A stretch of 63,625 nt of DNA, filler included, from Folioceros fuciformis (taxonomy: Eukaryota): assembly GCA_049999805.1 (NCBI GenBank). It is 22 parts of 22 records of this genome, joined end to end, with 100 filler letters (N's around TTAATTAATTAA, not from the genome) between each part and the next. Parts side by side here need not be neighbours in the genome. Positions count along the whole stretch, not along the records: positions 38,275 to 40,440 come from JBNGIO010000771.1; 21 more parts are not named here. One strand, written 5' to 3'. This document shows positions 5,961-61,526 of this stretch, in pieces. The notes beneath the pieces were generated by a model. It worked only from the letters and a program-made list of their open reading frames with translations. It did no database searches and was not told the origin of the DNA. Numbering within the stretch: the stretch's first letter is position 1; each line of letters starts with the position of its first letter. Made by a program: the position numbers and the translations under genes.

Positions 5961-6784
5961 ACACACTCTCTCTTTCTCCCTCTAACCCACACTTTCTCTC
6001 TCTCCCTCGCTTTGTACTCCCTCTCTCTACTTACCCCACGGCTTACTTTTTTGGCTTATGCCTCTTGATGGTTGAGATCCGTTGCGGGTCTCTCTCTCTT
6101 ACTGGTGATCACCCTTTCCTCACAGGACACACCCCTCCGTCCACCCACGTTTACTCACTGCCCCTCTCAGGGATCGAGGGCGCTCAGTTCACACTCACAC
6201 ACACGGACACGAGCCTACACATACCTTCCCGTTTCTCAATCAGTCAGCACGCCCACCTTCACTGACGCATTTTGCTCACAACCCTCGGGCCAGACTCCTC
6301 ACGTCCGCTCACGTGTCCCTGGGCTTCAGTCACATACACGGCTATAAACTTCTCTTCACCTCACAACATCCCGTCACAGCACATAGACACATCCAGTTCT
6401 CGTCACACTCTCGCTCTATTTATTCGCTCGTCAGTCGCGACTACACCCCCGCGGCACTCGCCCTCACTGCTCCGATTTTATGGTTCCCTAGCTCCACTCT
6501 CGACTCACTGCCAACTCACACACACTCACCCCAATCATTCAGCTCCACAACCTCTTCCTCTTGTCCTCACCACACCCGCATTCTGCATCCACTCGTAGCT
6601 CTCACAGTGGCGGCCACCCAGGCCACCCGTTGGCTTCACCAAGACTCAACCCTCGACACACTCTCAATTCTTAATCCACTTACGACTCTCGACTTCTCTC
6701 ACCAACGCACCCCTTCTGGACCTTCTCTTTTTCCCCCGAAGTTTGAAGGAATGGTGGGTCACCGAAGGCTAAGGGAAGGGGTAT

Positions 6785-7500
6785 TGTGGAGTGATTTCTT
6801 ACACCAAAGGGCCACACCTCCCCCTTATTGTCGTTGCAGCCTCATGATTCGCTCCCAAGGGAGTGAAATAGGGTCAAGGAACACCTACAGCTATCTACTC
6901 ACACTTCTACCTATCAGCCGGTCTATAAGCCTGAACACACACACACAACAAGAGGCCAGAAACCTTGCCTCTCTTCAAATCAGCTCACACAACTCACACT
7001 CCAGATCTTCAGTCCTTTGGCCCTTCATGATTTCCACTTCAGTCCTTCCTCCTTCACTTCAGCCCTTCACTCCAACTCTTCCTCTCTTTGCTTTAGCTAT
7101 TCCCTGGAAATTGGGACACAACGGCTTCACTCCTTGCAGCCTTCAAGCGTAGTGTGGATACTAGGACAGGATAGCCCTCCTGGCTCACGAACCTGTCACT
7201 TCACTTCAGCCAACCTGCGAATCATTCAGCCCTTGCGGATCTGGCCACATGGATCTTGGCAGTCTTGGGATCCTCCACGTTCCCCTAGTGGCAAGGAAAA
7301 TCAGGACCTTGGTTCAGTCTCAACCGGCTCAGCGCCCTAAGCCAGGAGTTCTGCACACAAGGTCCAGGGAAATCACACTGTAGACAGCCCCGTCTCAATG
7401 GCAGGTCTCCCCTCTTATCCTCCATCTCTGTCTACTAGGGTTAACATGAGTCAACTACCTAACCATCTCTCTCTCCGACCTAAACCATCCTACATCCAGT
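6785..7500 (-). mobile_element. Gypsy-type LTR family C
   Basis: Begins TGTGGAGTGATTTC; matches 4992-5190 in reverse; right boundary uncertain. Confidence 0.65.
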
Positions 7501-16420: not shown

Positions 16421-16484
16421 GGATAAGTGTGGCCACTAAACGTGGAACCCGTTGGCAATTAGTGCCCGGGGTTTTGCCTCCACA
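16421..16484 (+). mobile_element. LTR family A terminus abutting gypsy pol
   Basis: Reverse complement of the first ~64 nt of the 10445 copy; ends CCTCCACA. Confidence 0.8.
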
Positions 16485-19000
16485 GTGAGACCCCCACGGA
16501 AACGGAGGGGTGTACGTCCGTAGGAGACACAGCTGATTTGGAGGGGGAGGAAGGGGAAGACAAATTCCCATTTTCTCACATCTCATGGACAGATGAAGTG
16601 GAGGACTACCGAAGGGATATTCCTTATTCCCTGAATTGGGTGGAGTGTTTTGGGCTCACCTTGGACTGCACCATGGTAGGGGCTAAAGCAGCAAACGTGG
16701 AAGGGCAGGCTGGTGAGGTTGCTGAAGGGAAGGGCCAGGAAAAAGCTCCACATGCCAAGGGGGTTGTGAAGGAAGGGGAGATGATGGAAGGGGGCTGTGA
16801 CCCAAGGCCTGATGGGCCTGGTAGTGATGACCCGGAGGTCACAAGGTTCACCTCCGAGGACCTATTGAGAGAATGGGGAATGAGGGAGGAAGATCCCCGG
16901 GAGCCGGAGGAGGGGTTTGGAGTCAGCTCAGCACCGGTGGAGCGTGAATGGGTGCAGGCTGATGAAATCAAGGATGTGGAGGTACTGCCGGGCAAGGTCC
17001 TGAAGTTTGCAAAACAGCTAGATGCCACATTGGAGGAGGGAATGAAGCAACTCTTGGCTGAGTTCATCGATGTGTTTGCCTTTGAGGTGACGGACATGAA
17101 GGGAATTCCCAAAGAATGGGGGGAGCACTAGATTGACTTGGAACTCGGAGCTGTCCTCGTCTGAATTCCACAATAAAAGTTGAATCCAAAGTACTCCATG
17201 AAGGTAAAGGAACAACTGGAGCAGTGCTTGAAGGCAGATGTGATTTTTCCCTTTGTGAATTCAGAGTGGGTGGCCCCAATCGTGGTGGTGCCCAAGAAAT
17301 AGCCTAGTAAGATTCGGGTGTGCCAAGACTGGAGGAGGCTGAACAAGGCCACCAAGAAGGATCATTTCCCTTTACCATTCATTGACAACATCCTGGATTT
17401 GGTAGCTGGCCGCATGATGTACTCCTTTTTGGATGGCTACTTCGGTTACAATCAGTTGTCCCTAAGGGAGAGTGACTGGCCATTGACAGCCTTCACAACT
17501 GATTGGGGAACATTTGCCTACAAGAGGAGTGCATTTGGGCTGACAGGAGCACCGGGGTCCTTTATGCGCAGCATGTACAAGATCTTCAAGGATTTCCTCC
17601 ACAAGTTCCTAGAGGTGTTCATAGATGACTTTTGCGTGTCTTGAGGAGTGGAGTAACATCTGGAGCGCCTAAGGCTATGCTTGGCCAGGTGCCGTGAGAC
17701 ACGGCTTTGTTTGCATCTGAAGAAGTGCTATTTTGGTGTCTGATTTTTTAGGCATGGGGGAATTTCCAGTTGATCTCACACGGCAGCAGCAGCTGCTATT
17801 CTTGTACTTCACAAGGCTGGTGGTTAAGTACAAGGGCAAGCTATATCGCACAGGAGCTGATGGCGTAGAGAGGTTGTGGGTCAAACCTGGCCAAGTGGAG
17901 CAAGTTATCAGCTCCCTACATGAGGGAGAGGCTGGAGGCCATTATGCAGCCCATGTGACCTGTAGAAAAATTCTGGCAGCAGGGTATTAGTGGCCAACAA
18001 TGCATGCTGATGCTGGAGAATTCATCAAGAGGTGTGATGCATGCCAAAGGATGGGGAAGCCTACTAGGACCATACAATGGCCATTGGTCCCCATCCTAGC
18101 CCTAGCACCATTTGAGAAGTGGGGGATTGATTTTGTAGGACCAATTCAGCCCAAGTCTAAGGGAAGGCAAAACCAATACATCCTGGTGGCAACTGACTAT
18201 TGCACACGCATGATGGAGGCCCAAGCTTTGCCCGTGGACATAGCAAATGTGGTGGCCCAATTTTTGTTTGAGCAAATCATCATAAGGTATGGGTGCCCGT
18301 TGGAGCTGGTGAGTGATAGGGGGACTCACTTCATCAATGAAGTAGTCAAGCACATGACTGAATATTTCAATATTAGTCATAGGAAGACCACTTCCTACAA
18401 CCCTAAGGCCAATGGACTCACGGAGAAGGCTAATGGGCTTTGTGCAAGATTCTCAGCAAGCTCACCGTCACCTATGCTCATGATTGGGATAGGAAGCTCC
18501 ATTCAGCCTTGTGGGTGTATAGGGCTGCTGAGAAGGTTACTACCCAGCAGACCCCTTATTACCTCACCTATGGACACTCACCGATCATGCCCATCAAATT
18601 TGAGGTACCTACCTTGAGAATGCAGGAGAGCAATCGATTGCCCGTGGAGGAGAGCCAGCTGGAGAGGCTAACCAGTTTTGTGCAGCATGATGAGGATAGG
18701 GAACGGGCCTTGGCTGTTTTCCTTGATGTTCAAGAGAGGAGGAAGAAGTGGTACGACCAGAAGTTGCGTAAACAAGAGTATGTTGTGCCTGGAGATTTAG
18801 CCTTGTTATATAACAGTAGGTACATGCACTTTCCAGGTAAGCTGCACTTGAGATGGATGGGACCTTACAGGGTGTTGGAAGTGTATGAGAATGGGTCCAT
18901 CCAACTGCAGCACCTCAACGGCCCTAACTTACCAACTAGGGATAATGGCTGAAGGGTGAAGAAATATTATCAGTAGTTGGCGAGGACGCCAACAAATGAG
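16485..19000 (+). mobile_element. Ty3/gypsy pol pseudogene (RT + integrase; RNase H region missing)
   Basis: RT motifs KKDHFPLPFID, SFLDGYFGYNQ, VFIDDF; integrase GGHY, CDACQ, FEKWGIDFVGP, LVSDRGTHF, GKLHLRWMGPY; in-frame stops and frameshifts. Confidence 0.92.
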
Positions 19001-19100
19001 NNNNNNNNNNNNNNNNNNNNNNNNNNNNNNNNNNNNNNNNNNNNTTAATTAATTAANNNNNNNNNNNNNNNNNNNNNNNNNNNNNNNNNNNNNNNNNNNN

Positions 19101-19418
19101 GGCTCCCGCAGTGAAGTGGAGTGCGAGTATGCAGATTCCCAGCATCATCCCAGCAAGCCATTCATGTTCCCTGAGACTAATGACTACCTGGAAGAGACGA
19201 AGATTGTAGCTGTGAGTAGCATGCTCAATCCAGGTACTCCTATTTGGTATCGCTGCCGTTTTAGCCGCTTGGTGATGAAGCGCGTGAAGGTTCAGCCCTG
19301 CAAAGAATTTCCCGGCCACATGATCAGCTACTATCGTGAGTCATGTCCTCGTTTACATTTGTGTGCGAAGCCTGCCATCTTTGCAGACTCCTGTATGCCT
19401 TTCTCCCACTGTTTCTAA
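19101..19418 (+). CDS. Antisense ORF of unknown function 3' of copia pol (5'-truncated by contig edge)
   Basis: Open from the contig edge (GSRSEVECEY...); protein similarity to 38598-39350. Confidence 0.5.
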   Translation, partial: GSRSEVECEYADSQHHPSKPFMFPETNDYLEETKIVAVSSMLNPGTPIWYRCRFSRLVMKRVKVQPCKEFPGHMISYYRESCPRLHLCAKPAIFADSCMPFSHCF

Positions 19419-19692
19419 CATTGTTGTGCTGCTGTCTCCAGGTTCCGAGCTCAGGCTGCAAGAAGAAGTCCGCCTTGTTTCTCTCTAGAAAGGATCTCAT
19501 ATGAGGAGAGACGCAGACGTAACAGCCCACGCTCGGATGAGAGTTTCACCACCTACAACGAACCGGAGACTGAGTTTTCCAGTTCGAGCAGTGATGCTGG
19601 CAATTCTCCCAAAACTCCTGATTCGCGTCAGGAGGAAGACAGTAACAATTTCAGCTCGCATTACAGCTGGGATTAGGCATAGCATTTGCTTT

Positions 19693-20251
19693 TCAGACTT
19701 GTTGTGGCTGGAGGAGGTCCTCCGACTTCCCTAGGCCTAGCCTCTTGACATGTTTGTGCAGATCTCTTCCTAAAGCTTTGGTAAGGATGTCTGCTGGGTT
19801 TTCTGCTGTTGGTACATATTCCAGAACAATTTTGCCTGCCTGAACAAGCTCTCTGATGAAGTGGTACTCCACTTCTATGTGTTTAGTCCTTGAGTGAAAG
19901 ATCGAATTTTTAGCTAAGTTCATTGAGCCCTGGCTGTTAGTGTTTATGATTGTACAGGTGGGCAGATCAATCCCTATCTCCTTGAACAGCAGCTTAAGCC
20001 GTTTAACTTCCTTTGCAGCTGCTGTCAACACTCGATACTCTGCTTCCGTGCTGGATGTCGCTACTGTGGGCTGCTTCTTACTGCTCCAACAGATAGGACC
20101 ACCAGCAAAGCTCACCACATATCCTGACACAGACCTCCTAGAGTCCACATCCCCAGCATAATCTGAGTCTGTAAAAACCTCTAGGTCAAGAGCTTCACTG
20201 CTATGCTGGTATTTGAGTCCAACATCGAATGTTCCTTTCAAGTATCTGAAG
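19693..20251 (-). mobile_element. Ty1/copia RT end + RNase H
   Basis: FTDSDYAGD, SRRSVSGY, WSSKKQ, SSTEAEY, RTKHIEVEYHFIRE, ADILTKAL. Confidence 0.95.
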
Positions 20252-28292: not shown

Positions 28293-28837
28293 TGAAGGAT
28301 CGCTAGAAGGAGCTATATGGTGAAGGAAAGGGGGTATTTATACCCTCTAGAAGAGCTCCCTAGGAAGCTTCACAAGAAGTGCACAGGAAGCTGCGCAAGA
28401 AGCTTCCTACATATTAGCTTAAGCTAATCTAAACTAATGATACTTAACTAGACACTAATCATAGACTTAACACATTAGTCTAAGCACATTGGGCTTTAAT
28501 AACCCTACAACCTCTCACTTAAAGGCCAATTTACCTTCATAGGAGAGTGGTCTACCTCATGCCCATGAGTGTCCGAGCTTGTGCGAATTGCTCCGAAGCG
28601 AGCCCCTTGGTAAGAACATCCGCAAAGTTCTAACTGGTGTGAACTTTGACAAGTTGTACCCTCTTGTCTTTCAACACCTCTCGAATGAAGTGATACTTCA
28701 CTTCCACATGTTTGGTCTTCGCATGAAACACTGGATTCTTCGCCAACTAGATAGCACTCTGGCTATCACAATGCAACACTAGCAGCTCACCCTTGATCCC
28801 CAAATCTCCCACTAAACGAGCAAGCCACATGGCTTCC
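28293..28837 (-). mobile_element. Nested copia element: RNase H end, PPT and 217-bp 3' LTR (28293-28509, family F)
   Basis: Minus strand RTKHVEVKYHFIRE and ADVLTKGL; PPT AAGTGAGAGG; LTR TGTAGGG...CCTTCA; same LTR begins at 40329. Confidence 0.85.
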
Positions 28838-28937: not shown

Positions 28938-29965
28938 TGGAGATGGGGAAGCAGCTGCACACCCAAATTCAAGAACAAGGGCTTTGAAGCTGATGTGAAC
29001 GTAGCCAACAGTTTGGTGAACATGTACTCAAAGTGTGGTAGCCTAGACGATGCGCAGCGGGTGTTTGGCAGATTAAATCGGAAAGATGTAGTGACGTGGA
29101 CAGCTCTCATTGCAGGATATTTACGGCAAGGAATGGGCGTCAAGGCTCTTAGCGTTTACCGTGCTATGCAAGAGGATGGGGTAGCTGTGCCTGATTGTGT
29201 CACATTAGTGTGCCTCCTGCAGGCGTGTGCATATGTGGCAGCTTTCCATTTGGGAAGGCAGCTACATATGCGGATCAAACAGCAAGGATTTGAAGCTGAT
29301 GTAATTGTCGCTGGCAGTTTGATTAACATGTATGCAAAGTGGGGAAGCATGGTTGAAGCACAGAAGGTGTTCGATTCATTGTCTGACAAAAACATCGTTG
29401 CCTGGAACGGACTGATTGCAGGATACAGCCACCAAGGAGATAGTGAAGAGAGTGAATGAGAGTGGACGGTATACTGCCAGACAGCATAACGTTCCTTGGT
29501 GTGCTGACAGTCTGTGCTCATACAGGTCAAGTGAGCAAGGGGTGGGAGTACTTCGAAAGCATGAGCAGCCACAGTGACATCGCCCCAACGGTGGAGCACT
29601 ACGCATGCATGGTAGGTCTCCTGGGCCGTGCAGGCCGACTGGACGAGGCACAAGGCCTGGTGAGGAGCATGCATGTACCACCTGATGCCACAGTTTGGCA
29701 CACTCTGTTGGGGGCCGCTCAAAAGTGGAGGAACGTGGAGGTTGGACGCCATGCTTTCAAGCAAGCAGTGAAGCTAGACAAGAAAGATGCAGCAGCCTAC
29801 GTGTTGATGTCCAACATGCCCTAAACACCAGAGCCGAAATTCGGAGCAACCACAGGCCTTGCAGAGGAAGAGGGTGAGAATTAAGGCATGAAGCAGACGG
29901 GACAAAGGTGGTGGACAGACATGGACGGCCAGTGGGCTGGTGCACAGTTTTTGTTGTTGGGGATA
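28938..29965 (+). pseudogene. PLS-class PPR pseudogene fragment with E1/E2 and a WW-type PG-box remnant
   Basis: L-S-P repeats (NSLVNMYSKCG, DVVTWTALI), VEHYACMVGLLGRAG, AAAYVLMSNM, then GQRWWTD and VHSF; frameshift near 29455 and stop near 29822. Confidence 0.85.
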
Positions 29966-32863: not shown

Positions 32864-33960
32864 CGGCGCTTGCAAGAAAGGCGTCGGCCATTGCGCCAAA
32901 TCGGGTAAGAGATACTTGGAGTGCAGAGATTGCTGCATGAAATTCTTCGAGGCTCAAATTTTTAATGCAATTCAAACTCTTGCAGATGTGCTCTCGCGCG
33001 GTGGCGACGCATCCTCCATTACCGCTTTGATACCATATAAATTAGGATCGAGGTGGAAGCGAGAGCAAGCAAGAGATGTAGAATGATAATCTTTACTTTG
33101 GCCGTGGCCTTAAAAAAAGATTGAACGGTTGTGTCCTGTGAGTGTGAAGGTACGGCGATTAGTTTTAGGTCGCCGACCCTTGTGTATGTCGCTAGGAATC
33201 TATCGGTTCCCATCTAAATATGATTTACTATTTATTAATGCTGGATATATATAATTCTACCAATAGTGCGGACCATTTGGGGTTGTGCAGCACACAGCTG
33301 CAAATGAGGAGGGATCCAATTCGCAACCTATTGCCAGTGTCACCACACTTGACTCAACTGCCAACTCAGAAGGCGAGAAGGAGGAGGAGGTGAACACAAG
33401 GTATGTAACTCGATGTCTGGCCCAAAACTCAAGTAGCAGCGGTGTCATCATCAACTCTCAATTGCAAGTAGCCCTCACCAATGCAGCAGCAGCAACTAAT
33501 CTTCTCGAAGCGAGTGCTGAAGAAGATGATCAGCAGCCCACTGTCGAGGAAGATGTACCTACTCAAGCAGCCCCACAAATCCCATACTGAAGACAACGAT
33601 GCTGGGTTTGTGCTAAGCAAGACGGAAGGTGCACTATGTGTGGTAGGAAATACCACAAGGAGATCTGGCAGCAAGCATCTGACATAAGGTAGGAAAGTAA
33701 GGCTTTTCTTCACTAGTCACGTCTAGATTTCTGAACAACAGCTTCATCCCCTGACTAGGATACTCACCCTTACGTGGCTTGTCACAGGCGTGGACACAGA
33801 AGAGAGAACCACAAAGGACACAAGCAAGCCACACCAAACAGAAGAAGTTAGGAAGCTACTATTCTATGTTTTTGGTAATCAGCCTGTGACAGTAAGTAGA
33901 AGACACTAGATGAACTACAGAATAGGGGAGAGACCAGACAGCACCCAGACAAGTAATTTA

Positions 33961-35207
33961 TCATGGATATGTAAATTCTCGTAACCCTAAAGCTGCAACA
34001 TGTTGAAAATGGCGACTCCTCAACAACCCTTTTGTAAGAATGTCTGTAGTGTTGTCATTTGTGTTTACATACTCCACCCTAACAGTTCCAAGTTCTGCAA
34101 CATCTTGTATATAGTGATGGTATAACTCGATATGCTTGGTAAGTGCATGAAAGCGTGGATTGGAGACAAGGGCTATCGCACTCATGTTGTCATAGAACAA
34201 TATGGTACGACCCTCTTGCTTTTACTAAATTGATTCGAGAAACTGTCTTTCCCACTCAGCTTCCTTGCATGCGTCTGTAAGTGCTTTATACTCGGCTTTA
34301 GTTGATGAGAGAGCAAGAGAAGTCTATTTCTTACAGCTCCAACTCACCACAGCAGAAGACAGTAGGAAGCAATAGGCTGAAAGGCTTCTTCGAGAATCTG
34401 CATCCGAGGCCCAATCAGCATCTGCAAAGGAGTTAAGTACCAAACTCTTACTGCCACTTGTTGAATACTGTAGGCCATAGGAAACAGTGCCTTTCAAATA
34501 TCTGTAAATTCGTTTGACAACAACCCAATGTATGCATCTAGGTTGCTTCAAGAATTGAGACACAACACTGACAGAGTAACTAATATCTAGACGGGTCCAA
34601 TTAGAGAGAAAAATGAGGCAACCTACTGCCTCAACATATGGGGCAGCTACCATCTCAGCCTTGTCAAGAGAAGTCTGAGCTTCAGTTGTCAACCTCACTC
34701 CCAATGCTGAGGGAGTAGCAACTGGTCTAGCTTGCTGTAAGTTTAAACGACATAAAATTTCTTTCAAATACTTAGTCTGATGCATAGTGATTATGCCAGC
34801 TGACCGATTTCTCAAAATCTAAATGCCCAAATAGAACTGAAGATCTCCTTGATCTGTCATCTCGAATTCCCTGCGCAACATCTCTTTTACTGTGGCAAGC
34901 TGCTCAAGGTTGGTGCTCAACAGCACACAATCATCCACATACAACGCAAGGATAACAAACTGAGCACCAGCGGGAAGGAAAAACACATTGCTGTCAGCAG
35001 GAGACTGTAGAAAACCAAGTTGTTTAAGGTACTTCATAATTCGCTTATACCAAGCCTTAGGAGACTGTTTTAAACCATAGATCATTTTGAGCAGCCTACA
35101 AACTTCTGTGGGTACTGATTGTCCACAAATCCTTCAGGCTGATCCATGTATAATGTCTCCTCTAACTCACTCTGTAAAAATGTTGTGCAGACATCCATCT
35201 GCTGCAC
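33961..35207 (-). mobile_element. Ty1/copia RT-RNase H pseudogene
   Basis: IYGLKQSPKAW, LYVDD, FADADWASD, TKHIELYHHYI, DILTKGL; in-frame stops. Confidence 0.93.
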
Positions 35208-38174: not shown

Positions 38175-38274
38175 NNNNNNNNNNNNNNNNNNNNNNNNNN
38201 NNNNNNNNNNNNNNNNNNTTAATTAATTAANNNNNNNNNNNNNNNNNNNNNNNNNNNNNNNNNNNNNNNNNNNN

Positions 38275-40328
38275 AGAAAAGGTAGTGTCTGGTCCTTACA
38301 CAAGTCTCAAAATAGGACTGGCAGTTATAACTGCTAATCTAACCTAACTACCTAAGTTACTAGCCCTAAGCATAGCAATGTTAATTAACTACTCAACACT
38401 CCCACTCATTGCAAAGTGCTTAGGTATTTTATAAACGTTTATTAATCGAATTGAACTTAAATGTTCTCTAGCACAGCACGAACACGAGGAGTCACAAACA
38501 AGTACTTCAGCTCCCAGTCGCATATGTCGGCATCAAATCCCTTGCTTAAATTCTCTGCTCATGAATACAAGATGCCAGATTCTGTTTCAGGTTCCAAGTG
38601 CTCGACGAGATGGTTCTGTTTGGAGCTGCGCTAGGGTCTTCGAGTCAGCCAGCTGCGGCGCAAGGATCCAGCTCCGAGCTCAGTCCACTTGCTGTAGAGA
38701 AGTCTGAAGACCCTGGTCATACTGCTATTGCTATGGCGGCGGCTTGCGCTACTCCTTCAACAGCTGCTCCTGTCGAAGATGGTGCTCCTGCACAAGCTAC
38801 CACACACGATTATCGAGATGCTGCACCTCTCCGCCTCCACCACAATCGCGCTTCAAGCGGACTGAGATGGGTTAAGCGCAAGGCCACACCCTCCTATGCT
38901 CACTGGATGAAGAAACTCCGACAAATGGAGAAGCGTGAAGCTGTCCTCACTCACAAAATTTTTGCTCTTCGAAGGCAACTTCAGGCTTCCAATGTTCCAG
39001 TTGCAAGCTCAGGCGTTTTGTCGCGTGCTCTCGCTCCTCTAGCGTATACTCCCACTGAACGCAGTTGCTATTCACCCGTGGGACCTCTTAACGCTGTGAA
39101 GCTTCCTCCGCAGATTGAAGACGAATATGTTGTCCTGCCAGTGCCACACAATCCAAGACCATACACGCTGCCTAGGGGACACAGAAGCAAGACTGTATGA
39201 TTGGTGACTGATGGAGACGGGATCAATGACCCTCTTACCCCTGAGGCTTATATTTGCACTGTTACTGGAATAGAGATGGTGAGAGAAGACTGGTTCAGAT
39301 GGGGTGGCGACAACGGGAACTTTATTTCTTTCTACAGTAAGCCTGCCTAGCTAGCCTCTTATCTTATGCACACTATTGTTGTGGTTTGAGGATGCTGCCC
39401 AGACTAACTTCCTGACTGCAGTATCATCAACTCCTCATAGAGTTTCACCATAGAACGTACAAGAGGGCTGATATGGACTATGCTGCAAAGGACGACGACA
39501 TAAGAGTGAAGCCAACAAGACACAACCTTGACCCCAATTACTTAGAGGTGCAGAGGGGAAAGCTGAACGAAGATACACACTGTGTTCTTTGACGTGCCTG
39601 TTAGTAGTAGTTCGAACTCTGACATTGACTCTGTGTCTGCGGCCTTCTAGGTCTAGTCTATGAAATGCACTCAAAGACAGTGACAGTCAGGACCTGCCTT
39701 TCATTTTACTTGGAAAGGTAAGAGGAGTCCAAGACTCCTAAAGCTTTTTTAAGCTGATGATGTTTACCTTTAGGTAGTACTTTTGATGACACATCTGCCG
39801 CGTTTGAGTTTGTAGGGACATACTCCAAATGTATCTGGCCTGAGGATACAGCTCCATGAATGAAGTGATAATGCACTTCAATATGTTTAGCTATCGCATG
39901 AAATACGGGATTTTCTACGAGTGATAGGGCTCTAGTGCTGTTACAATAGATTGTCGTGGGCTGAGTTTGCTCCTGGCCTAAGTCCTTAAGAAGCCTTCGT
40001 AGCCAGATTGCTTCTTTGGCTGCTTGAGTAAGAGCATAATACTCTGACTCTGTGGATGATAATGAAACTATGGTCTGTTTCTTAGATGACCAGGTAATTG
40101 CTCCTCAAGCCAACAAGAATGCATAAGACAAAACTGATTTCCTGAAGTCTAGATTTGCTGCCCAATCAGCATCAAAGTACCCTAACAAGATAAGTGACTC
40201 ACCTTCGTACTGCTGCTTTGTATAATGTATGCCATGACTGTTGGTTCCTTTAAGGTACCTCAATATCCGTTTCAGTATAGTCCAGTGAGTTCTTCTAGGC
40301 TGTTTAAGAAATTGAGAAGTCATACTAA
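38275..40328 (-). mobile_element. Ty1/copia 3' half: RT end/RNase H (~39706-40323), ~1.3-kb 3' region, PPT (38399-38408), 3' LTR start (38398 leftward)
   Basis: FDADWAAN, WSSKKQ, STESEY, KHIEVHYHFI; on minus, PPT TGAGTGGGAG is followed by TGTTGAG. Confidence 0.88.
38598..39350 (+). pseudogene. Antisense ORF within the copia 3' region (~250 codons, one internal TGA at 39198-39200)
   Basis: 200-aa ORF continues in frame after TGA as LVTDGDGINDPLTPEAYICTVTGIEMVREDW...NFISFYSKPA*; homologous to 19101-19418. Confidence 0.55.
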
Positions 40329-40440
40329 TGTAGGGTTATTAAAGCCCAATGTGCTTAGACTATTGTATTTAGTTTAAGATTAGTGTCTAGTTAAGTATCA
40401 TTAGTTTAGATTAGCTTAAGCTAATCTAAACTAATGATAC
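40329..40440 (+). mobile_element. LTR family F terminus inserted in copia RT
   Basis: TGTAGGGTTATTAAAGCCCAATGTG is the reverse complement of 28485-28509. Confidence 0.8.
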
Positions 40441-42062: not shown

Positions 42063-43372
42063 TCTACCACACATTTACGGGCACATTTGCGATATAGAGG
42101 ACAGGTGTTTTCTGGTCCACCAAATGTTGTTTTTCTTCTCTATCCTTTGCGTCCCTCTGACTCCAAGCATCCTATACAAATCATAACTCCACGTCATTGT
42201 TATTGGAATTCCTTGCTCGCTTGTAATATTCAACTCATTGTGAATGTATCGAACTTGTTCAATAAATGATATTTTCTTCGAGAAATCCACCTTCACGTTA
42301 TGGTCGGTAGCCAGACACCTCATTTCCTTTGCGTAAGTCTTGCATAGATGTGTGCCTCCATATACAGGTAGTGAGAGTTCTTCGGGGTCCTCTGCAAAAA
42401 GCCCCTGGAATGCATAAAAACTGTGGTTCCCGCCTAATACCCCCATGATATACTTATGTTTCTTTAGTTTTGAGCAATCAAAATCTGCAAATGTCGGGCA
42501 CTTCTTAGGGTCAATCATACAGAACAAGGGTAAGACGCCTTCCTGTACTGGTCGCTTCTTTATCTCTTGTAGAAGATGCTTTCCCCATGACTCATCGACT
42601 CGCCTTATCTGCGCATCTTTGGTTAGATAGTCTATGGAACGGAGCATGTTGATGGCAACCATGTCAATATGCGGAATACACCATTTGCGATGCGCAGACT
42701 CCTTTACGAGATTGATAGGGTCATTATGCTGCAAAGCCTTGTCAATCCTATCGCTATCAATCAGAATGACCTTCGTAATAACTCTTCTAGTTGGAGCCTC
42801 TTCTGTATTGCCTTGTTTCTTCTTTCTTCTTGCCCTCATACTCCCCGGCCCTTTCCGATGTGCTGGCGAATCGGCAACAATGAGTTGGAGATCATCATCA
42901 TCAAACAAAGAGTCTAAATCCTCACGAAGACTTAACATTTTCTGCCAGACGGCAGGAAATGATGTTTTCCCTAATGCATCTAGGCTTTCCAATGATGTGT
43001 CTGTGCTCGCTTTCTTCGAGATGTTGGACGACCGCTTTGATGCACCTTCACTTGCAATATCCTAGAACACATTGTTATCGTCGTCATTTAGGGATCTTTA
43101 TCTTCTTGTACATCCTCATCTTCCTGCCCAAGAGGCGTTGACGAAGAGGCTGCGATATTTTTGCATAGAACAAGGCCAGCTCCTCTTACATTTCTATGGG
43201 GACCCATCCACCCCTCGCGCGACAATCATGTTGGTGCACTCTAGGCCGTGCCACCGGCTACATGATGGTAAAGCATCTTCTTGTATGTTGATTGACCTCC
43301 CCGACCTGATTGTCATCCAGTTGTCTATTGCCAAAGTCCTTCGAGGACAAGCTTCGTGTCCATCGAGAACAG
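42063..43372 (-). pseudogene. ParB/Srx-like domain ORF (305-aa open segment 42075-42992; upstream stops; interrupted by an LTR at 43373)
   Basis: AQIRRVDESWGKHLLQEI...PLFCMID...MGVLGGNHSFYAFQGL...LATDHN...SFIEQV resembles the ParB/Srx pattern. Confidence 0.55.
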
Positions 43373-56388: not shown

Positions 56389-59300
56389 CTATGGTCGACC
56401 CTTACAACTGCAACAGCCATTTTCAAAGCGATGCACTCGGTACCCATCCCTCACAACGATGTGTCTCTGTTCCACCCTCGACATGATCTCCGTGGAACTG
56501 TGGCAGTCGCTGCACATTCGTAGGTTTTTGGTCACCACCAGAGGTGTCCCACTGGCGGTGTTCAGCAGACCGAAGGCCAAAGCTAGTTTCTCAGCATGCC
56601 CGCAAAGCACATCTTCCTTCTCCTTCTCTGACACGGGCTTCAGAACCAACTTTGTGTCAGGTACGTGGCCTCCTTCCTGCTTTAGACGAGCGTTCGTGCT
56701 CTCTACCTTCACAGCAATGTCCTCCCTCCTTTCTCCCACCAGGAACCGATGTAGCTGCTTCTTCACCTCGATGGTCGTCACTGCAGGTGTCTTGCTGGCT
56801 CCCGCTACCCTTCTCCGTGTTTCGGTCCTCTCTACATCGCTCCACCGACCTGCATCTGCGTACGCATTAGCCATGAGCACGTAGGCGGCCGCCTCCTGAG
56901 GGTCCAGCCTAACAATGCTTTCGAAACACCACCGCGCCCTCTCCACATCCCCGTGACTTTTGCAGGCATTCAGCAGCGACGTCAAGCCCACAATGTTACT
57001 CTGCGCCTCACATGACAATAGCATCTTCTCGGCCTCGTCTAACAGGCCTGCTCGCCCAAGAAGATCAATCATGCAAATGAAATGCTCCACACCAGGTTGG
57101 ATGCCATGCTCTTGAGCCATGGAGTCCAAGTGCCTGCGACCCTCGTGCACCAGTCCACCATGACTGCATGCCACTAGAAGGCAAGTGAAAGTCACGTCAT
57201 TAGGCTGAATGCCAGCACCTAACATCTCCTCAAAACAGGCTAGTGCCTCGTGAGCTTCATCACAAGTACCGTACCCGGATATCAGAGCATTCCATGTCAC
57301 CACATCCTTTCCGCTCATGCTGTCGAACACGTGGCGTGCATCTTCCATCTCCCCACATTTTGCGTACATGTCCACCAGGCAGTTTCCCACCAAAACGTCA
57401 TCCACCAGTCCACTTTTCACAATCCGGGCGTGCAGCTGCCTACCCTGTTGTAACGCACCCGTGCTTCCACAGGCCTTGAGAAGGCAGGCATAAGTAACAT
57501 GGTTAGCCAACACGAGGCCCTCTTGCTCCATTCGTCCATGGAGAAGAAGCGCCTCATCCCCAAGCCCTGACTCGGTGTACCCAGATATCAGGGCGGTCCA
57601 TGTCACCACATCCCTTGTCTTCATGCTGTCAAAAACCTGGCGGGCATCATCCACTTCACCGCATTTTGCATACATGTCCACCAGGCAGGTCCCCAACACG
57701 ATGTCACTCACGAGTCCTCGTTCCACGATCTGTGAGTGTAGGTGCCTGCCCTTCAGTAAATCACCACTGCTGCCACAGGCTTTGAGAAGACAAGCAAACG
57801 TAACCTGGTCAGCCACAACAACGCCCACCTCCTCCATCACTCCATACACAAGAAGCGCCTCTGCGGCCTTGTTTACCTCTACATACCCAGATATGAGGGA
57901 ATTCCATGTCACCACATCCTTTGAGGCTAAACTGTCGAAAAGCTGGCGTGCATCTTGCACTTCACCACATTTGGAATACATATCCACCAGACAGTTGCCC
58001 ACCATCACGTCATCCAGCAGTCCTCTTTCCACTATCTGCAGGTGCAGCTGCCTGCCCTTATGTAAGGCACCGGTGCTTGCACAGGCCTTGAGAAGGCAGG
58101 CAAAAGTAACGCGGTCAGCCAAAATGAGGCCCGCCTCCTCCATCTGTCCATACACAAGAAGCGCTTCATGTCCAAGCCCTTGTTGTGCATACCCGGCCAT
58201 CAGCACCGTCCATGTCACCACATCCTTCGTTGACATGCTCTCAAAAACCTGGCGGGCATCTTTCACATGGCCACATTTCGCATACATGTCCACTAGGCAG
58301 TTACCAACGAACAAGTTGATAGGAATGCCACTGTGCAAGACATCACAGTGCACCTTTCTGCCGGATTGCAAGTCTTGTGCAAGTGCACAAGCCTGAAGGG
58401 CAGCTACGAAGACGTGAGCATCCGCCTTGGTTCCTGACCTACACATGTCATGGTACAGTCGTAGGGCCACATTGGGTTTCCCATGCTTGGCGTATGCGGA
58501 GATGATGGAAAACCACATGAACACGTTTGGTTTGGGCACCCTGGTGAACACGTCCATGGCCTCCTGCAGCCTACCGGCACATGCATACATGCGCAAGATA
58601 TGGTTACCCAAGTAGGCGTTGGACTGGTATCCGAGGTTGACGGCCAGGTCATGAACTCGTCGTCCTACAACCACATCCTTTTTAGCTGCACACAGTTTTA
58701 GCACAGTATAAAAAAGAGAATGAGAGACAGCAGAATCTGTGTGCGCCAGAAATTCGAGGGCATCGACGGCCTCAGACAGCTTCCCCCGCCGACACAGCAT
58801 GTTCACGGTTCCAGGCGTCACAACGCCCATTTCCGATCTTGCACCCTTCCTAGCCTCTTTCTTATGGGTGGAGGTGGACTTGGAAAGAGAGGCACCGTGA
58901 TCCATCTGCACATCCAAGGAACCTAGCTGGTGATAAACCCAAGCTGGCTTCAAGATATCGTTCAACCACAGGACCTCGCCGGAGCCTTTACGCCGGAAGT
59001 GAGGCACATGGGAACTCTTCTTGGCCCGTCTGTTGTCCCACCACATGGTAGGCTCCTGGAAAAATTGTTGCCACAAGTGCTGATGCTGCTGCTCCTCCTG
59101 GGGACGACCATCGCTGGAAACGCGGTCCCCAGCCACACAATCTTGCGGATGCGGAATCGCCGAGCTCCTTAGACTGCTGCCGCACCTGGAGGGCATTTCC
59201 GATTCTGCACGCACCCCGTATTCAGGACAGCTCCTGCCCTGACCCAGCTGCATATCCAAGGAAACGAGCTGGGCATCAACCCAAGCTGGCTTGGACATGC

Positions 59301-59679
59301 CGGTTAACCACAGGACCTCGCCGGACCCCTTGTGCCGGAAGTGAGGCGAACGGGAGCTCTTGTGATCTCGTCTGTTGTCCCACCACACGGTAGGGTCTAG
59401 GAAGAATTGTTGCCACAAGTACTCCTGCTCCTGGACAACAGCGTGGCTGCAAACCCCGTCTCCCCCTACACATTCTCTCGTAAGGCGCAGTCCTCGGCTC
59501 CTTCCGCTGCTGAACCCGGGGGATCGGTTGTTTGCCAGAGCTTGATTCCCTGAGGTGGTGATGTGAGCGGGAAGCCGTAGCAGAATCCCAGTCCCTGTGT
59601 TTGTAGACACGCGGATTGCGAGTGGTTGGCTCCATGGAGAGTCCGGGTCCGCCGGCAACGGCCACACTCCGGTGGCCAT
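56389..59679 (-). CDS. Intronless PLS-class PPR protein: 2x OSB-type PDF-like motif, ~17 PLS repeats, E1, E2, DYW:KP domain ending GRP (candidate organellar U-to-C RNA editing factor)
   Basis: 1096-aa ORF; L-S-P triplets; KTPAVTTIEV box in place of the PG box; HAEKLA; CSDCH; C-terminus SCKGRP; two W..FF..P..WWDNR..K..R/H.PHFR.KGSGEVLWL motifs. Confidence 0.95.
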   Translation of the reverse strand: MATGVWPLPADPDSPWSQPLAIRVSTNTGTGILLRLPAHITTSGNQALANNRSPGFSSGRSRGLRLTRECVGGDGVCSHAVVQEQEYLWQQFFLDPTVWWDNRRDHKSSRSPHFRHKGSGEVLWLTGMSKPAWVDAQLVSLDMQLGQGRSCPEYGVRAESEMPSRCGSSLRSSAIPHPQDCVAGDRVSSDGRPQEEQQHQHLWQQFFQEPTMWWDNRRAKKSSHVPHFRRKGSGEVLWLNDILKPAWVYHQLGSLDVQMDHGASLSKSTSTHKKEARKGARSEMGVVTPGTVNMLCRRGKLSEAVDALEFLAHTDSAVSHSLFYTVLKLCAAKKDVVVGRRVHDLAVNLGYQSNAYLGNHILRMYACAGRLQEAMDVFTRVPKPNVFMWFSIISAYAKHGKPNVALRLYHDMCRSGTKADAHVFVAALQACALAQDLQSGRKVHCDVLHSGIPINLFVGNCLVDMYAKCGHVKDARQVFESMSTKDVVTWTVLMAGYAQQGLGHEALLVYGQMEEAGLILADRVTFACLLKACASTGALHKGRQLHLQIVERGLLDDVMVGNCLVDMYSKCGEVQDARQLFDSLASKDVVTWNSLISGYVEVNKAAEALLVYGVMEEVGVVVADQVTFACLLKACGSSGDLLKGRHLHSQIVERGLVSDIVLGTCLVDMYAKCGEVDDARQVFDSMKTRDVVTWTALISGYTESGLGDEALLLHGRMEQEGLVLANHVTYACLLKACGSTGALQQGRQLHARIVKSGLVDDVLVGNCLVDMYAKCGEMEDARHVFDSMSGKDVVTWNALISGYGTCDEAHEALACFEEMLGAGIQPNDVTFTCLLVACSHGGLVHEGRRHLDSMAQEHGIQPGVEHFICMIDLLGRAGLLDEAEKMLLSCEAQSNIVGLTSLLNACKSHGDVERARWCFESIVRLDPQEAAAYVLMANAYADAGRWSDVERTETRRRVAGASKTPAVTTIEVKKQLHRFLVGERREDIAVKVESTNARLKQEGGHVPDTKLVLKPVSEKEKEDVLCGHAEKLALAFGLLNTASGTPLVVTKNLRMCSDCHSSTEIMSRVEQRHIVVRDGYRVHRFENGCCSCKGRP

Positions 59680-59939
59680 ACTTGTCCAGCGAACATATGT
59701 AGTTTAGCTAGTTGTTGTTGTTCAGGGAGCGGAGTCAAAGTCGTTCATGGACGGACGGTGTGTGATGGATACGTTGTAGTGGCAGGATGATGACCATGTG
59801 TCTATTTACTGTCATGTCACAACGCGGTCTGTGGCTCACTCGGAGTTATTAGTCCTGAAGGAACAACAACACCATCTTCTCCCTCCTCTAATCGTGTTCG
59901 TGTAGGGGAGGGGACTTTCATGGCTATCCACCACCAGGA

Positions 59940-61526
59940 CCCCCTTAAGCACCACTGCTGCCACAGGCTTTGAGAAGGCGCTTAAGCAAACGTAACCTTG
60001 TCAGCCAAAACAACGCCCACCTCCTCCATCACTCCATACACAAGAAGCGCCTCTGCGGCGTTATTTTCCTGCGCATACCCAGATATGAGGGAATTCCATG
60101 TCACCACGTCCTTCGAGGCTTCGAGGCCAACGTATCAAAAAGCTGGCGTGCATCTTGCAGTTCACCACATTTGACATACATGTCCACCAGGCACGTGCCC
60201 AGGATTACATCATCCAGCAGTCCTTTATCCACCATCTGCGAGTGCAATTGCATGCCCTTCTGTAAGGCACCAGTGCTTCCACAGGCCTTGAGAAGGCAAG
60301 CAAAAGTAACTCGATCAGCCAACATGAGGTCCGCCTCCTCCATTTGTGCATACACAAGAAGCGCCTCTTGGCCAAATCCTTGGCGTGCATACCCAGCAGT
60401 CAGGGCATTCCATGTGACCACATCCTTCGTGGCCATGCTGTCAAAAACCTGGCGTGCCTCTTTCACTTCACCACATTTAGCATACATGTCCACGAGGCAG
60501 TTGCCAACAAACAACTTAGTAGGAATACCACTGTGGAGCACATCGCAGTGCACTCTCCTGCCAGATTTCAAGTCAGCGGCGAGTGCACAGGCTTGAAGGG
60601 AAGCTACGAAGACGTGGGCATCCACCTTCACATCTCACCTACGCATCTCATGGTAAAGTTGTATGGCTTGGTGAGGTTTCCCGAGCTTAGCATGTGCAGA
60701 AATTATGGAAAACCACATGAAGACGTTTGGTTAGGCAACCCTGGTGAGCACTCCGGCAGCCTCCTGCAGCCTCCCTTCACATGCAAGCACGCGCAAGATA
60801 TGGTTCCCCAAGAATGAGCTGGAATCGTACTCAAGTTTGGCAATGAGACGATGAAGTCGACGGCCTACAACCAAATCCTTGTTAGCTGTACACAGTTTTA
60901 GCAGAGTGTACAAGAGAGTACGAAATGGCACACTCCTTCTGCGCAAGGCTCTCCAGCGCTCCAACGGCCTAAGAAAGCTTCCCCTGCGAACATAACTAAC
61001 GTCCTCACGGTGACAGCAGTAACGACGGTGAGTTGCGATAGCCCACGCCTGCCAGGTTTAGGCTTGTACGGAGAGCTGGACTGGAACGGAGAGGCAGCAT
61101 GGTCCAAGGAGACCAGCTGCTGCTCCTAAACCCGAGGTGGCTTACGCATGTTGTTCAGGCACAGCGGCTGGGCGGACCCGTTACGACGGAAGTCAGGCAC
61201 ACGGGAGCGCTTCTTCTCTGGTATGCTATCCCACCTCATGGTGGCCTCCAGAAGAAATGGTTGCCATATGTGTGCCTGCCCCACGCAACGCGCGTCGCTG
61301 GGAGACCCATGCCCATCCACAAACTTCGCGGGAATTGGAAGTATTGGGCTCCTTACGATGGCTTTGCTTGCCAGGGGTGGACTCCGACTCCCGAGGCTGA
61401 GGGTTCACGGGCTCCCGAACCCTTCACGGGCTTGCATTGAGGGCCTCGGGAATCCGGGCCTCCGGGGATTCAGGGGCTCGGCTGGTCTGGGGCCTTGGGA
61501 ACTTGCTCGTATGTTGAAGTGAGGAG
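59940..61526 (-). pseudogene. Tandem truncated, frameshifted paralog of the PDF-PLS-GRP gene
   Basis: Same PPR repeats (DAHVFVASLQACALA, DVVTWNAL, DRVTFACLLKACGSTG) and one degenerate PDF motif (RSRVPDFRRNGS); frameshifts; no E or DYW domain. Confidence 0.88.

Follow-up and report, generated by a model that had tools for sequence, protein, structure and literature searches.

A candidate antisense accessory reading frame behind the pol gene of a Ty1/copia retrotransposon in Folioceros fuciformis

In a stretch of 63,625 bases from the genome assembly of Folioceros fuciformis (GCA_049999805.1), hereafter called the window, a fragment of a Ty1/copia retrotransposon, which we refer to as copia A, carries a long open reading frame (ORF A) in the interval that separates pol from the polypurine tract. 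ORF A is located on the plus strand, in the orientation opposite to gag-pol, the pol gene being encoded on the minus strand. The interpretation that we favor, at a little better than an even chance, is that ORF A represents, in decayed form, an orphan extra ORF specific to one multi-copy family of Ty1/copia elements. The arrangement corresponds to that described as aORF-3R or eORF-3'R in the long terminal repeat (LTR) retrotransposons of plants, a heterogeneous kind of ORF that is rare in copia elements.

A long antisense frame in a Ty1/copia element

The window was built from 22 contigs of 1-6 kb each, which are chained by 100-base linkers of the form N44-TTAATTAATTAA-N44, for example at 38175-38274 and 19001-19100. 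Since the contigs were simply joined, neighborhood across the linkers is meaningless, and copia A as well as a second element, copia B, are represented by short fragments (Table 1).

ORF A extends from 38565 to 39347, begins behind a stop codon at 38562-38564 and contains 261 codons with a single in-frame TGA, followed by a TAG at 39348-39350. The original prediction, which was made from the sequence alone, had described a frame of about 250 codons with one TGA in a spacer of about 1.3 kb behind the RNase H stop, and both estimates agree well with our measurements, the distance from the pol stop (39706) to the polypurine tract (38410) being 1295 nucleotides (nt). The minus strand from 38410 to 38392 reads AATGAGTGGGAG followed by TGTTGAG, which we interpret as the polypurine tract and the start of the LTR. 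This reading of the sequence is supported by two different contigs from DNA sequencing runs, which match this region as far as 38411 and from there lead to a different place, the sides of these joints being only 20 letters long.

The host of ORF A is a Ty1/copia element, as its pol gene ends with RNase H and the tail is related to those of elements that carry RVT_2 or a copia gag. The tail of copia A is 48% identical over 120 amino acids to that of copia B and 38% identical over 85 amino acids to a third tail in the window (33964-34221, minus strand), whose contig has an RVT_2 domain (PF07727, 4.7e-25). A total of 536 relatives of the copia A tail were identified in metagenome contigs, and in the 80 loci that were fetched the RNase H tails are 44-53% identical to that of copia A, several of them being followed by a copia gag. 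The integrase and the reverse transcriptase of copia A itself lie off the contig.

With 211 uninterrupted codons, ORF A is exceptionally long for an antisense frame behind a copia pol gene. As controls we used those 48 of the 80 metagenome loci in which the sequence continues for at least 1 kb past the pol stop. In these loci, the longest frame on the antisense strand, up to 1.6 kb from the stop, has a median length of 89 amino acids; it reaches at least 100 amino acids in 14 of them, at least 150 in a single one and at least 200 in none. Near-identical copies aside, the antisense ORFs of the control loci do not form a family. On the sense (minus) strand of copia A, the frames between 38412 and 39705 are at most 92 amino acids long with non-coding codon scores, and a sense env ORF of the SIRE type is not present in this interval. 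Long sense ORFs do occur behind some of the related pol ends, where they represent the gag of a following copia rather than env-like genes. In five of these metagenome loci (L002, L003, L025, L041 and L063) the gag(-pol) ORF of the following copia starts 300-590 nt past the pol stop, so that the LTR and spacer must be very short or else the elements are arranged in tandem and share an LTR.

The codon usage of ORF A looks coding-like. A codon model was trained on 18 ORFs of the window with Pfam support, stop codons being left out. Its mean score is 0.039 for known ORFs, -0.072 for frames that shadow known genes and -0.039 for other ORFs. The N-terminal part of ORF A scores 0.023, within the range of known coding sequences and above the shadow frames, and the C-terminal part of 49 codons scores 0.13, which is higher than for all 128 ORFs of at least 90 amino acids in the window, this part being short and its score noisy. 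With stop codons included, ORF A has the highest score of the six frames, and negative scores (-0.079, -0.031 and -0.047) are obtained for three frames that are open opposite PPR genes. No tandem repeats were found in ORF A.

Two other interpretations of the frame were considered and rejected. The first is an intron that would remove the TGA; the sole in-frame acceptor corresponds to an intron of 51 nt, and a candidate of 79 nt hits a stop. The second is that positions 38399-38410 are the primer-binding site of an element on the plus strand, with ORF A as its gag. In this case, there is no TGG after the LTR end, Pfam recognizes no gag family in ORF A, and contigs from diverged copies tie the frame to the copia pol end.

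Table 1. Features of the two copia fragments, in positions of the window (dot, no strand assigned).
Feature	Position	Strand	Remarks
Contig with ORF A	38275-40440		2166 nt
3' LTR start, copia A	38275..38398	-	TG at 38398-38397; other side cut by contig end at 38275
Polypurine tract AATGAGTGGGAG	38399..38410	-	Putative, read from the sequence; directly before the LTR start; 10/12 bases purine
TATAAA hexamer	38430..38435	+	175 nt before first ATG; candidate internal antisense promoter
ORF A, uninterrupted part	38565..39200	+	211 codons stop to stop; first ATG 38610; ends with TGA 39198-39200
ORF A, continuation in the same frame	39201..39350	+	49 codons plus TAG
C-terminal block of ORF A	39144..39341	+	Only part between pol and tract alignable at >=80% in a more distant relative in the genome; matches the A-B alignment at 39147-39335
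Variable spacer, ORF A stop to pol stop	39351..39705	.	7/12 indels shown; segments 39447-39580 and 39342-39627 unalignable in diverged contigs
Pol tail (RNase H end), copia A	39706..40335	-	Stop codon 39706-39708; one in-frame TGA at 40105-40107
Contig with ORF B	19101-20251		1151 nt
ORF B	19101..19418	+	105 codons plus stop; 5' end cut by contig end
ORF B, part aligned to the ORF A block	19146..19334	+	End 358 nt from pol stop
Pol tail (RNase H end), copia B	19693..20250	-	Stop at 19693

Diverged copies of the element

Additional evidence comes from contigs of DNA runs that were placed on 38275-40440 at a likeness of at least 80%, of which the best-supported rows are described here. All of these data come from one sample in one study, which is possibly the source of the assembly itself, and they are therefore not independent support. 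Two DNA runs of this sample contain 64-70% of the sampled words of the ORF A contig. The single run that we guessed to be RNA matched this contig only in a high-copy repeat at 40329-40426.

Diverged copies align with the plus strand frame over 38623-39108 with 76 differences and no gaps, and over 38648-39107 with 82 differences and no gaps. Another relative aligns over 39078-39446 with 51 differences and no gaps; the following 134 nt are exchanged for 136 different ones, after which the alignment continues over 39581-39722 and thereby spans the pol stop. Copies that are 14-18% diverged can be aligned without gaps over 369-486 nt, whereas the adjoining spacer is full of indels and replacements. 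A more distant relative, in a contig of 3622 nt, aligns only over 39144-39341 (37 differences in 198 nt, no gaps, 81% identity) and over 39628-39767 (25 differences, 82% identity), with 286 nt between the C-terminal block and the pol end replaced by 304 other letters. The C-terminal 66 codons of ORF A are accordingly kept like the end of pol, but the spacer between the two is not. Among the 12 indels shown of 33, one is located in ORF A (783 nt), seven in the spacer of 355 nt, two in pol and two in the LTR.

Taken together, these diverged contigs link the ORF on one side to the polypurine tract and LTR and on the other, through its C-terminal part, to the pol end. They support the conclusion that ORF A belongs to the copia element, as the original prediction had assumed, and the alignments indicate that substitutions are tolerated in the frame and that indels are few.

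Two further aspects of the read data are mentioned for completeness. Positions 39078-39369 have a greater summed contig depth than positions 38640-39077, a difference that we did not use because contig depth cannot rank the parts of a gene. In one DNA run of the same sample (X3), the differences to 38275-40440 are almost all of the types C>T and G>A (90 and 132 places), which resembles a library made by bisulfite or enzymatic conversion and could report the methylation state of the element.

A second antisense frame behind another copia pol gene

It had also been claimed that a second frame occurs in the same position and orientation behind a different copia RNase H, and that the two encode related proteins. 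The second frame, ORF B, is present as described, 274 nt from the pol stop of copia B (19693). Its length of 105 amino acids is ordinary for an antisense frame behind pol, 14 of the 48 control loci having one of at least 100 amino acids, though the contig ends within ORF B. In the codon model ORF B obtains a borderline score (0.008, rank 36 of 128), and no Pfam family was recognized in it. A search of a protein atlas gave a lead to gag, in that the best scores (0.89) were to clusters of hypothetical proteins and two lower rows had Retrotrans_gag in 12% and 35% of their members. This lead was rejected; all atlas scores were below 0.9, few features were shared and Pfam detected no gag. A search of viral contigs with ORF B brought up a single locus (L081), which has only an exact peptide of 9 residues in common with it and is regarded as a chance pattern match.

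One hypothesis, which is a subset of the interpretation that we favor, is that ORF A and ORF B are homologous and represent one old accessory gene, antisense behind pol, with a shared C-terminal module of about 65 residues. Judging from the sequences, we consider such a homology possible but doubtful. The alignment of the C-terminal parts, which had been made by eye, is recovered by BLASTP (20.4 bits, 14 identities in 63 residues without gaps, E 0.008 for the single pair), but it is marginal by comparison with shuffled and unrelated sequences. The Smith-Waterman score of 41 was reached by 28/2000 and 32/2000 residue shuffles, that is by about 1.5%. The 122 other ORFs of at least 90 amino acids in the window served as decoys; three of them match ORF A as well as ORF B does and one matches ORF B as well as ORF A does. 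A tblastn search of the window contigs left the two ORFs unpaired at E<10. When the two spacers were compared in all 36 combinations of frames, the ORF/ORF alignment obtained a score of 42, as compared to 41 for an unrelated combination, in which the LTR of copia A is paired with the spacer of copia B at a register shifted by 1271 nt. In terms of score, the similarity is marginal and lies at the edge of noise. Conservation at the protein level across two diverged copia elements, as originally claimed, is not demonstrated; it is helped only by position and by the block that is conserved in the reads.

The position of the alignment is in its favor. In copia A, 370 nt lie between the end of the aligned block and the pol stop, close to the corresponding distance in copia B, and none of 3000 shuffles reached the score together with an offset of at most 12 nt; taken singly, the two occurred at rates of 1.5% and 2.4%, with a product of about 4e-4. 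When the register is fixed, the score is 34 in the frame of the ORFs and between -8 and -102 in the remaining five. In addition, the ORF/ORF alignment is alone among the ten best frame-pair alignments in joining the top score with co-linearity, and the aligned part of ORF A nearly coincides with the block defined independently of ORF B by the reads (Table 1). However, the offset test was chosen after the data had been seen and the fixed-register test is circular, since the register was picked by the score of the ORF frame, and we therefore give the homology less than an even chance.

Copia A and copia B belong to the same well-supported set of 13 rows in a tree of RNase H tails, and yet they were sisters in none of 200 bootstrap trees. 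No bridging member was found in searches of protein libraries and metagenome contigs, by tblastn of ORFs A and B against the 80 related copia loci, by phmmer against 51 antisense ORFs of related loci, or with an A+B profile against all six frames of the related loci, where the best match (E 0.43) was on the sense strand. Behind the third copia pol of the window (32865-33960) there are only short broken frames on both strands, without likeness to ORF A or ORF B, and the stop codon inside the ORF A block also argues against a shared module.

The two regions are without similarity at the DNA level, as had been noted. The best blastn match between the spacers is a 12-mer (E 0.52), and 9/300 shuffles share a word as long; the nucleotide identity over the block is 38% in the protein-guided register. 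The shared 12-mer, AGAGTTTCACCA, is located at 39439-39450 and 19540-19551, at unequal distances from pol. There are also weak translated likenesses that are co-linear in the two spacers, 39568-39643 with 19585-19660 (score 34) and 39415-39523 with 19455-19563 (score 33), their offsets differing by 30 and 53 nt. These may hint at a distant homology of the whole region behind pol, or may be due to chance.

In its boldest form, the hypothesis is that ORFs A and B represent a hitherto unseen antisense accessory family of Ty1/copia elements, in which a conserved C-terminal module of about 65 residues follows an N-terminus that evolves fast. The few residues shared in the module would be H..P[YF]..P, [DN]P.TP..Y.C and IS[FY]Y, and the gene would have kept a fixed distance behind pol since before the split of lineages whose RNase H tails are now 48% identical. 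We think that this is probably not the case.

Non-coding and cis-acting alternatives

An alternative explanation, which we find rather unlikely, is that ORF A does not encode a protein. According to this explanation, the spacer of 1.3 kb is captured or junk DNA that is open by chance, the likeness among the copies reflects recent amplification and not selection, and the likeness between ORFs A and B is fortuitous.

A number of observations speak for this explanation and weigh against the identification of ORF A as a decayed gene. The first is that ORF A is an orphan in every database searched. It has no relative at E<=0.001 among 1.84 billion representative proteins and no homologue in word-indexed protein searches; none was found in metagenome contigs, where 111 pattern matches were all unrelated, nor in viral contigs. 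In Pfam, no family was recognized at E values up to 1 except for DUF6279, which is below threshold (12.9 bits, with a cut-off of 27.7), and a sequence search of the PDB gave no relative, the one match having an E of 1.3. The recognition value of ORF A in the protein atlas is low (1381), with a best score of 0.82 and no consistent family. Structure prediction, which had been proposed as a check, was carried out with single-sequence AlphaFold2 models, but these are unreliable for ORF A and for ORF B alike (predicted local distance difference test, pLDDT, 35.9 and 41.3) and too poor to be used. The positions of strands in the two models partly coincide in the register of the alignment, to which we give no weight.

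The second group of observations concerns the frame itself. It is broken by a TGA inside the conserved C-terminal block, and no majority variant occurs at this codon among 40 of 759 variants shown, which suggests that the stop may be common to many copies. Open frames are common, with 128 of at least 90 amino acids in the window, and the three frames of at least 200 amino acids that stand opposite PPR genes are mere shadows of these. In the codon model, 18 ORFs without a family outscore the N-terminal part of ORF A. Not all diverged copies are free of gaps; one aligns over 38584-39073 with 60 differences and 5 gap letters, and another, in a contig that runs into the LTR, has 124 differences and 18 gap letters over 38340-39107. 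Some relatives may be without the N-terminal part or the whole of the ORF, as hinted by joints of 38411 with 39144 and with 39371, whose sides are again only 20 letters long. The differences that are private to the window copy are uninformative with regard to codon position; in ORF A, four of the six best-supported ones are at synonymous third positions, and in pol the counts for the first, second and third positions are 4, 7 and 5, without bias.

Against a non-coding origin stand the four lines of evidence presented above, namely the lack of an antisense frame of at least 200 amino acids behind pol in all 48 related loci, a codon score in the range of known coding sequences, the gapless alignment of diverged copies next to a spacer that is not so kept, and the preservation of the C-terminal block at the identity of the pol end where the spacer is unalignable. 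It is on these grounds that we prefer to view ORF A as the remnant of a gene.

A third explanation, that the block at 39144-39341 is a cis-acting nucleic-acid element, for example for packaging, dimerization or plus-strand priming, and that the open frame is incidental, could draw on the relative that possibly joins the block straight to the polypurine tract (the joint from 38411 to 39144) and on the fact that both strands are open across the block in copia A and copia B, with a stop inside the block in A, but it is very improbable, because the block has no unusual fold on the copia-sense strand (z +0.80, with 154/200 shuffles folding as well, and z +0.44, with 131/200), is without DNA likeness between A and B, has the best codon score of the window in its plus frame, and is connected to the tract by a joint with such a short side. 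The codon-aligned minus frame over the block has no methionine and a lower codon score. The absence of an unusual RNA fold means that a constraint on the protein fits the data better than a structured RNA element does.

The putative protein and its possible expression

If ORF A is a decayed gene, intact copies would encode a protein of about 245 amino acids from the ATG at 38610. Its N-terminus would be rich in alanine, serine and proline, variable and probably disordered, followed at about residues 111-141 by a basic helix and then by a module of about 65 residues at the C-terminus, probably the part that evolves most slowly. A helix at residues 111-141, placed after a basic stretch, is the only recurring element in the model of ORF A, and it is predicted with low confidence. 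Transcription of the plus strand would start upstream of the ATG, within the approximately 200 nt that separate it from the polypurine tract and contain the TATAAA at 38430, a candidate promoter element. The resulting RNA would be antisense to the 3'-terminal kilobase of the RNA of the element.

By analogy with the antisense ORFs of Grande, Retand and the human T-cell leukemia viruses (HTLV), as summarized in the literature (PMC7264820), we speculate that the product might bind nucleic acid or a host factor and modulate the expression or replication of the element that makes it. This is a tentative suggestion, and we would expect it to be wrong rather more often than right. The antisense RNA could, by the same analogy, provide a second layer of regulation.

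Other features of the window

At its right end (40329-40440), the ORF A contig consists of an unrelated repeat of very high copy number, which cuts off the pol tail. The summed word depth of this repeat is 43,000-83,000 in the DNA runs, as compared to about 50-250 elsewhere. It is closed by a perfect palindrome of 23+23 nt at 40395-40440 and occurs also at 28413-28509 (95% over 97 nt), in the contig at 24925-28837. The motif TTAGGTTAGATTAG was found at six sites with at most two mismatches (268, 28424, 38086, 38334, 40401 and 40421), where 0.46 would be expected; some of these are close to contig ends, and one is located within the presumed LTR of copia A.

Outside the two copia fragments, the Pfam matches of the window correspond to intron-less PPR-DYW genes, MULE/SWIM transposases and pieces of copia and gypsy elements, a content that is indicative of a land plant. 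A search of the window against Rfam gave 0 matches. One PPR gene is located on the minus strand at 56392-59703 and encodes an uninterrupted PPR protein of 1104 codons with an E motif and a DYW deaminase domain. Further PPR fragments were observed at 28938-29821 and 60104-60634, and the frames at 57494-58393, 59949-60593 and 29159-29773 are open on the strand opposite to PPR genes. Long ORFs without a Pfam family are located at 6109-7149 (plus strand, 347 amino acids), 42078-43061 (minus strand, 328 amino acids) and 16463-17128 (plus strand, 222 amino acids). The latter two have coding-like codon scores (0.058 and 0.123, respectively), and the ORF at 16463-17128 is upstream of a gypsy reverse transcriptase and may be its gag.

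Antisense reading frames in plant retrotransposons

Antisense ORFs between pol and the 3' LTR have been described in Ty3/gypsy elements, such as gene23 of Grande in maize, RIRE2 in rice, Retand in Silene and pvRetro13 in bean (PMC7264820; PMC11963269), the latter being listed with 14 companions that are also Ty3/gypsy (PMC4093653). In Grande, an internal promoter upstream of the antisense ORF has been described (PMC7264820). ORF A resembles these aORF-3R in its place between pol and the 3' LTR, in its opposite orientation and, as for most of those described, in having no clear protein relative (PMC7264820). It differs in that its host is a Ty1/copia element, and it is shorter, with 211-261 codons as compared to 211-939 amino acids for the ORFs in the table of the bean elements (PMC4093653). 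Our searches of Pfam and protein libraries, which are not a direct comparison, detected no similarity between the gypsy ORFs and ORF A. In the account given of aORF-3R, they are required to be present in all or most copies of a family rather than in a single copy (PMC7264820).

A more specific comparison can be made with the Retand/Tat elements, in which an antisense ORF with a Transposase_28 domain (PF04195) is described as conserved within the lineage, in a long region between pol and the 3' LTR (PMC11963269). Neither ORF A nor ORF B has a match to PF04195, the spacer of copia A is 1.3 kb as compared to 2.9-6.6 kb in the elements described there (PMC11963269), and it lacks arrays of tandem repeats. 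Minus-strand genes close to the 3' LTR are also known from HTLV-1 (HBZ) and its relatives (PMC7264820), and the basic stretch followed by a predicted helix in ORF A is reminiscent of these. However, searches of representative proteins and PDB sequences revealed no sequence relation, and a regular leucine heptad was not seen in ORF A, so that the likeness is one of analogy only.

In copia elements, the survey by Neumann et al. (2019) reports extra ORFs of at least 250 codons, excluding tandem repeats, in 582 elements, with 45 similarity groups, most of which are without a known domain (PMC6317226). The typical case in that survey, found in 74% of SIRE elements, is in the sense orientation, whereas ORF A is antisense. 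The copy of ORF A in the window has 211 uninterrupted codons and reaches the survey length, at 261 codons, only if the TGA at 39198 is read through. Supplementary file 3 of the survey lists reverse ORFs at the 3' end in 1% of SIRE elements and in a few per cent of the Bianca and Ikeros elements, the columns being ambiguous for the two latter lineages, and gives none for other copia lineages (PMC6317226). The original view that antisense 3' ORFs have not been described in copia elements was hence too strong. Within the literature that we covered, which did not extend to subscription journals, we found no named copia family with a conserved antisense gene.

At present, a single decayed copy on an unplaced contig and a marginal second case represent a lead rather than a result. 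Some Ty3/gypsy lineages regularly have extra antisense ORFs behind pol, and for Ty1/copia elements such ORFs are documented only by the low percentages of a survey table. If one or two copia families keep such a gene, it would mean that antisense accessory genes have arisen or persisted in both superfamilies, and if ORFs A and B indeed belong to one family, they would represent the first example of an antisense gene that is conserved in copia elements. A gene of this kind would also provide a small and tractable protein for asking what antisense accessory genes do.

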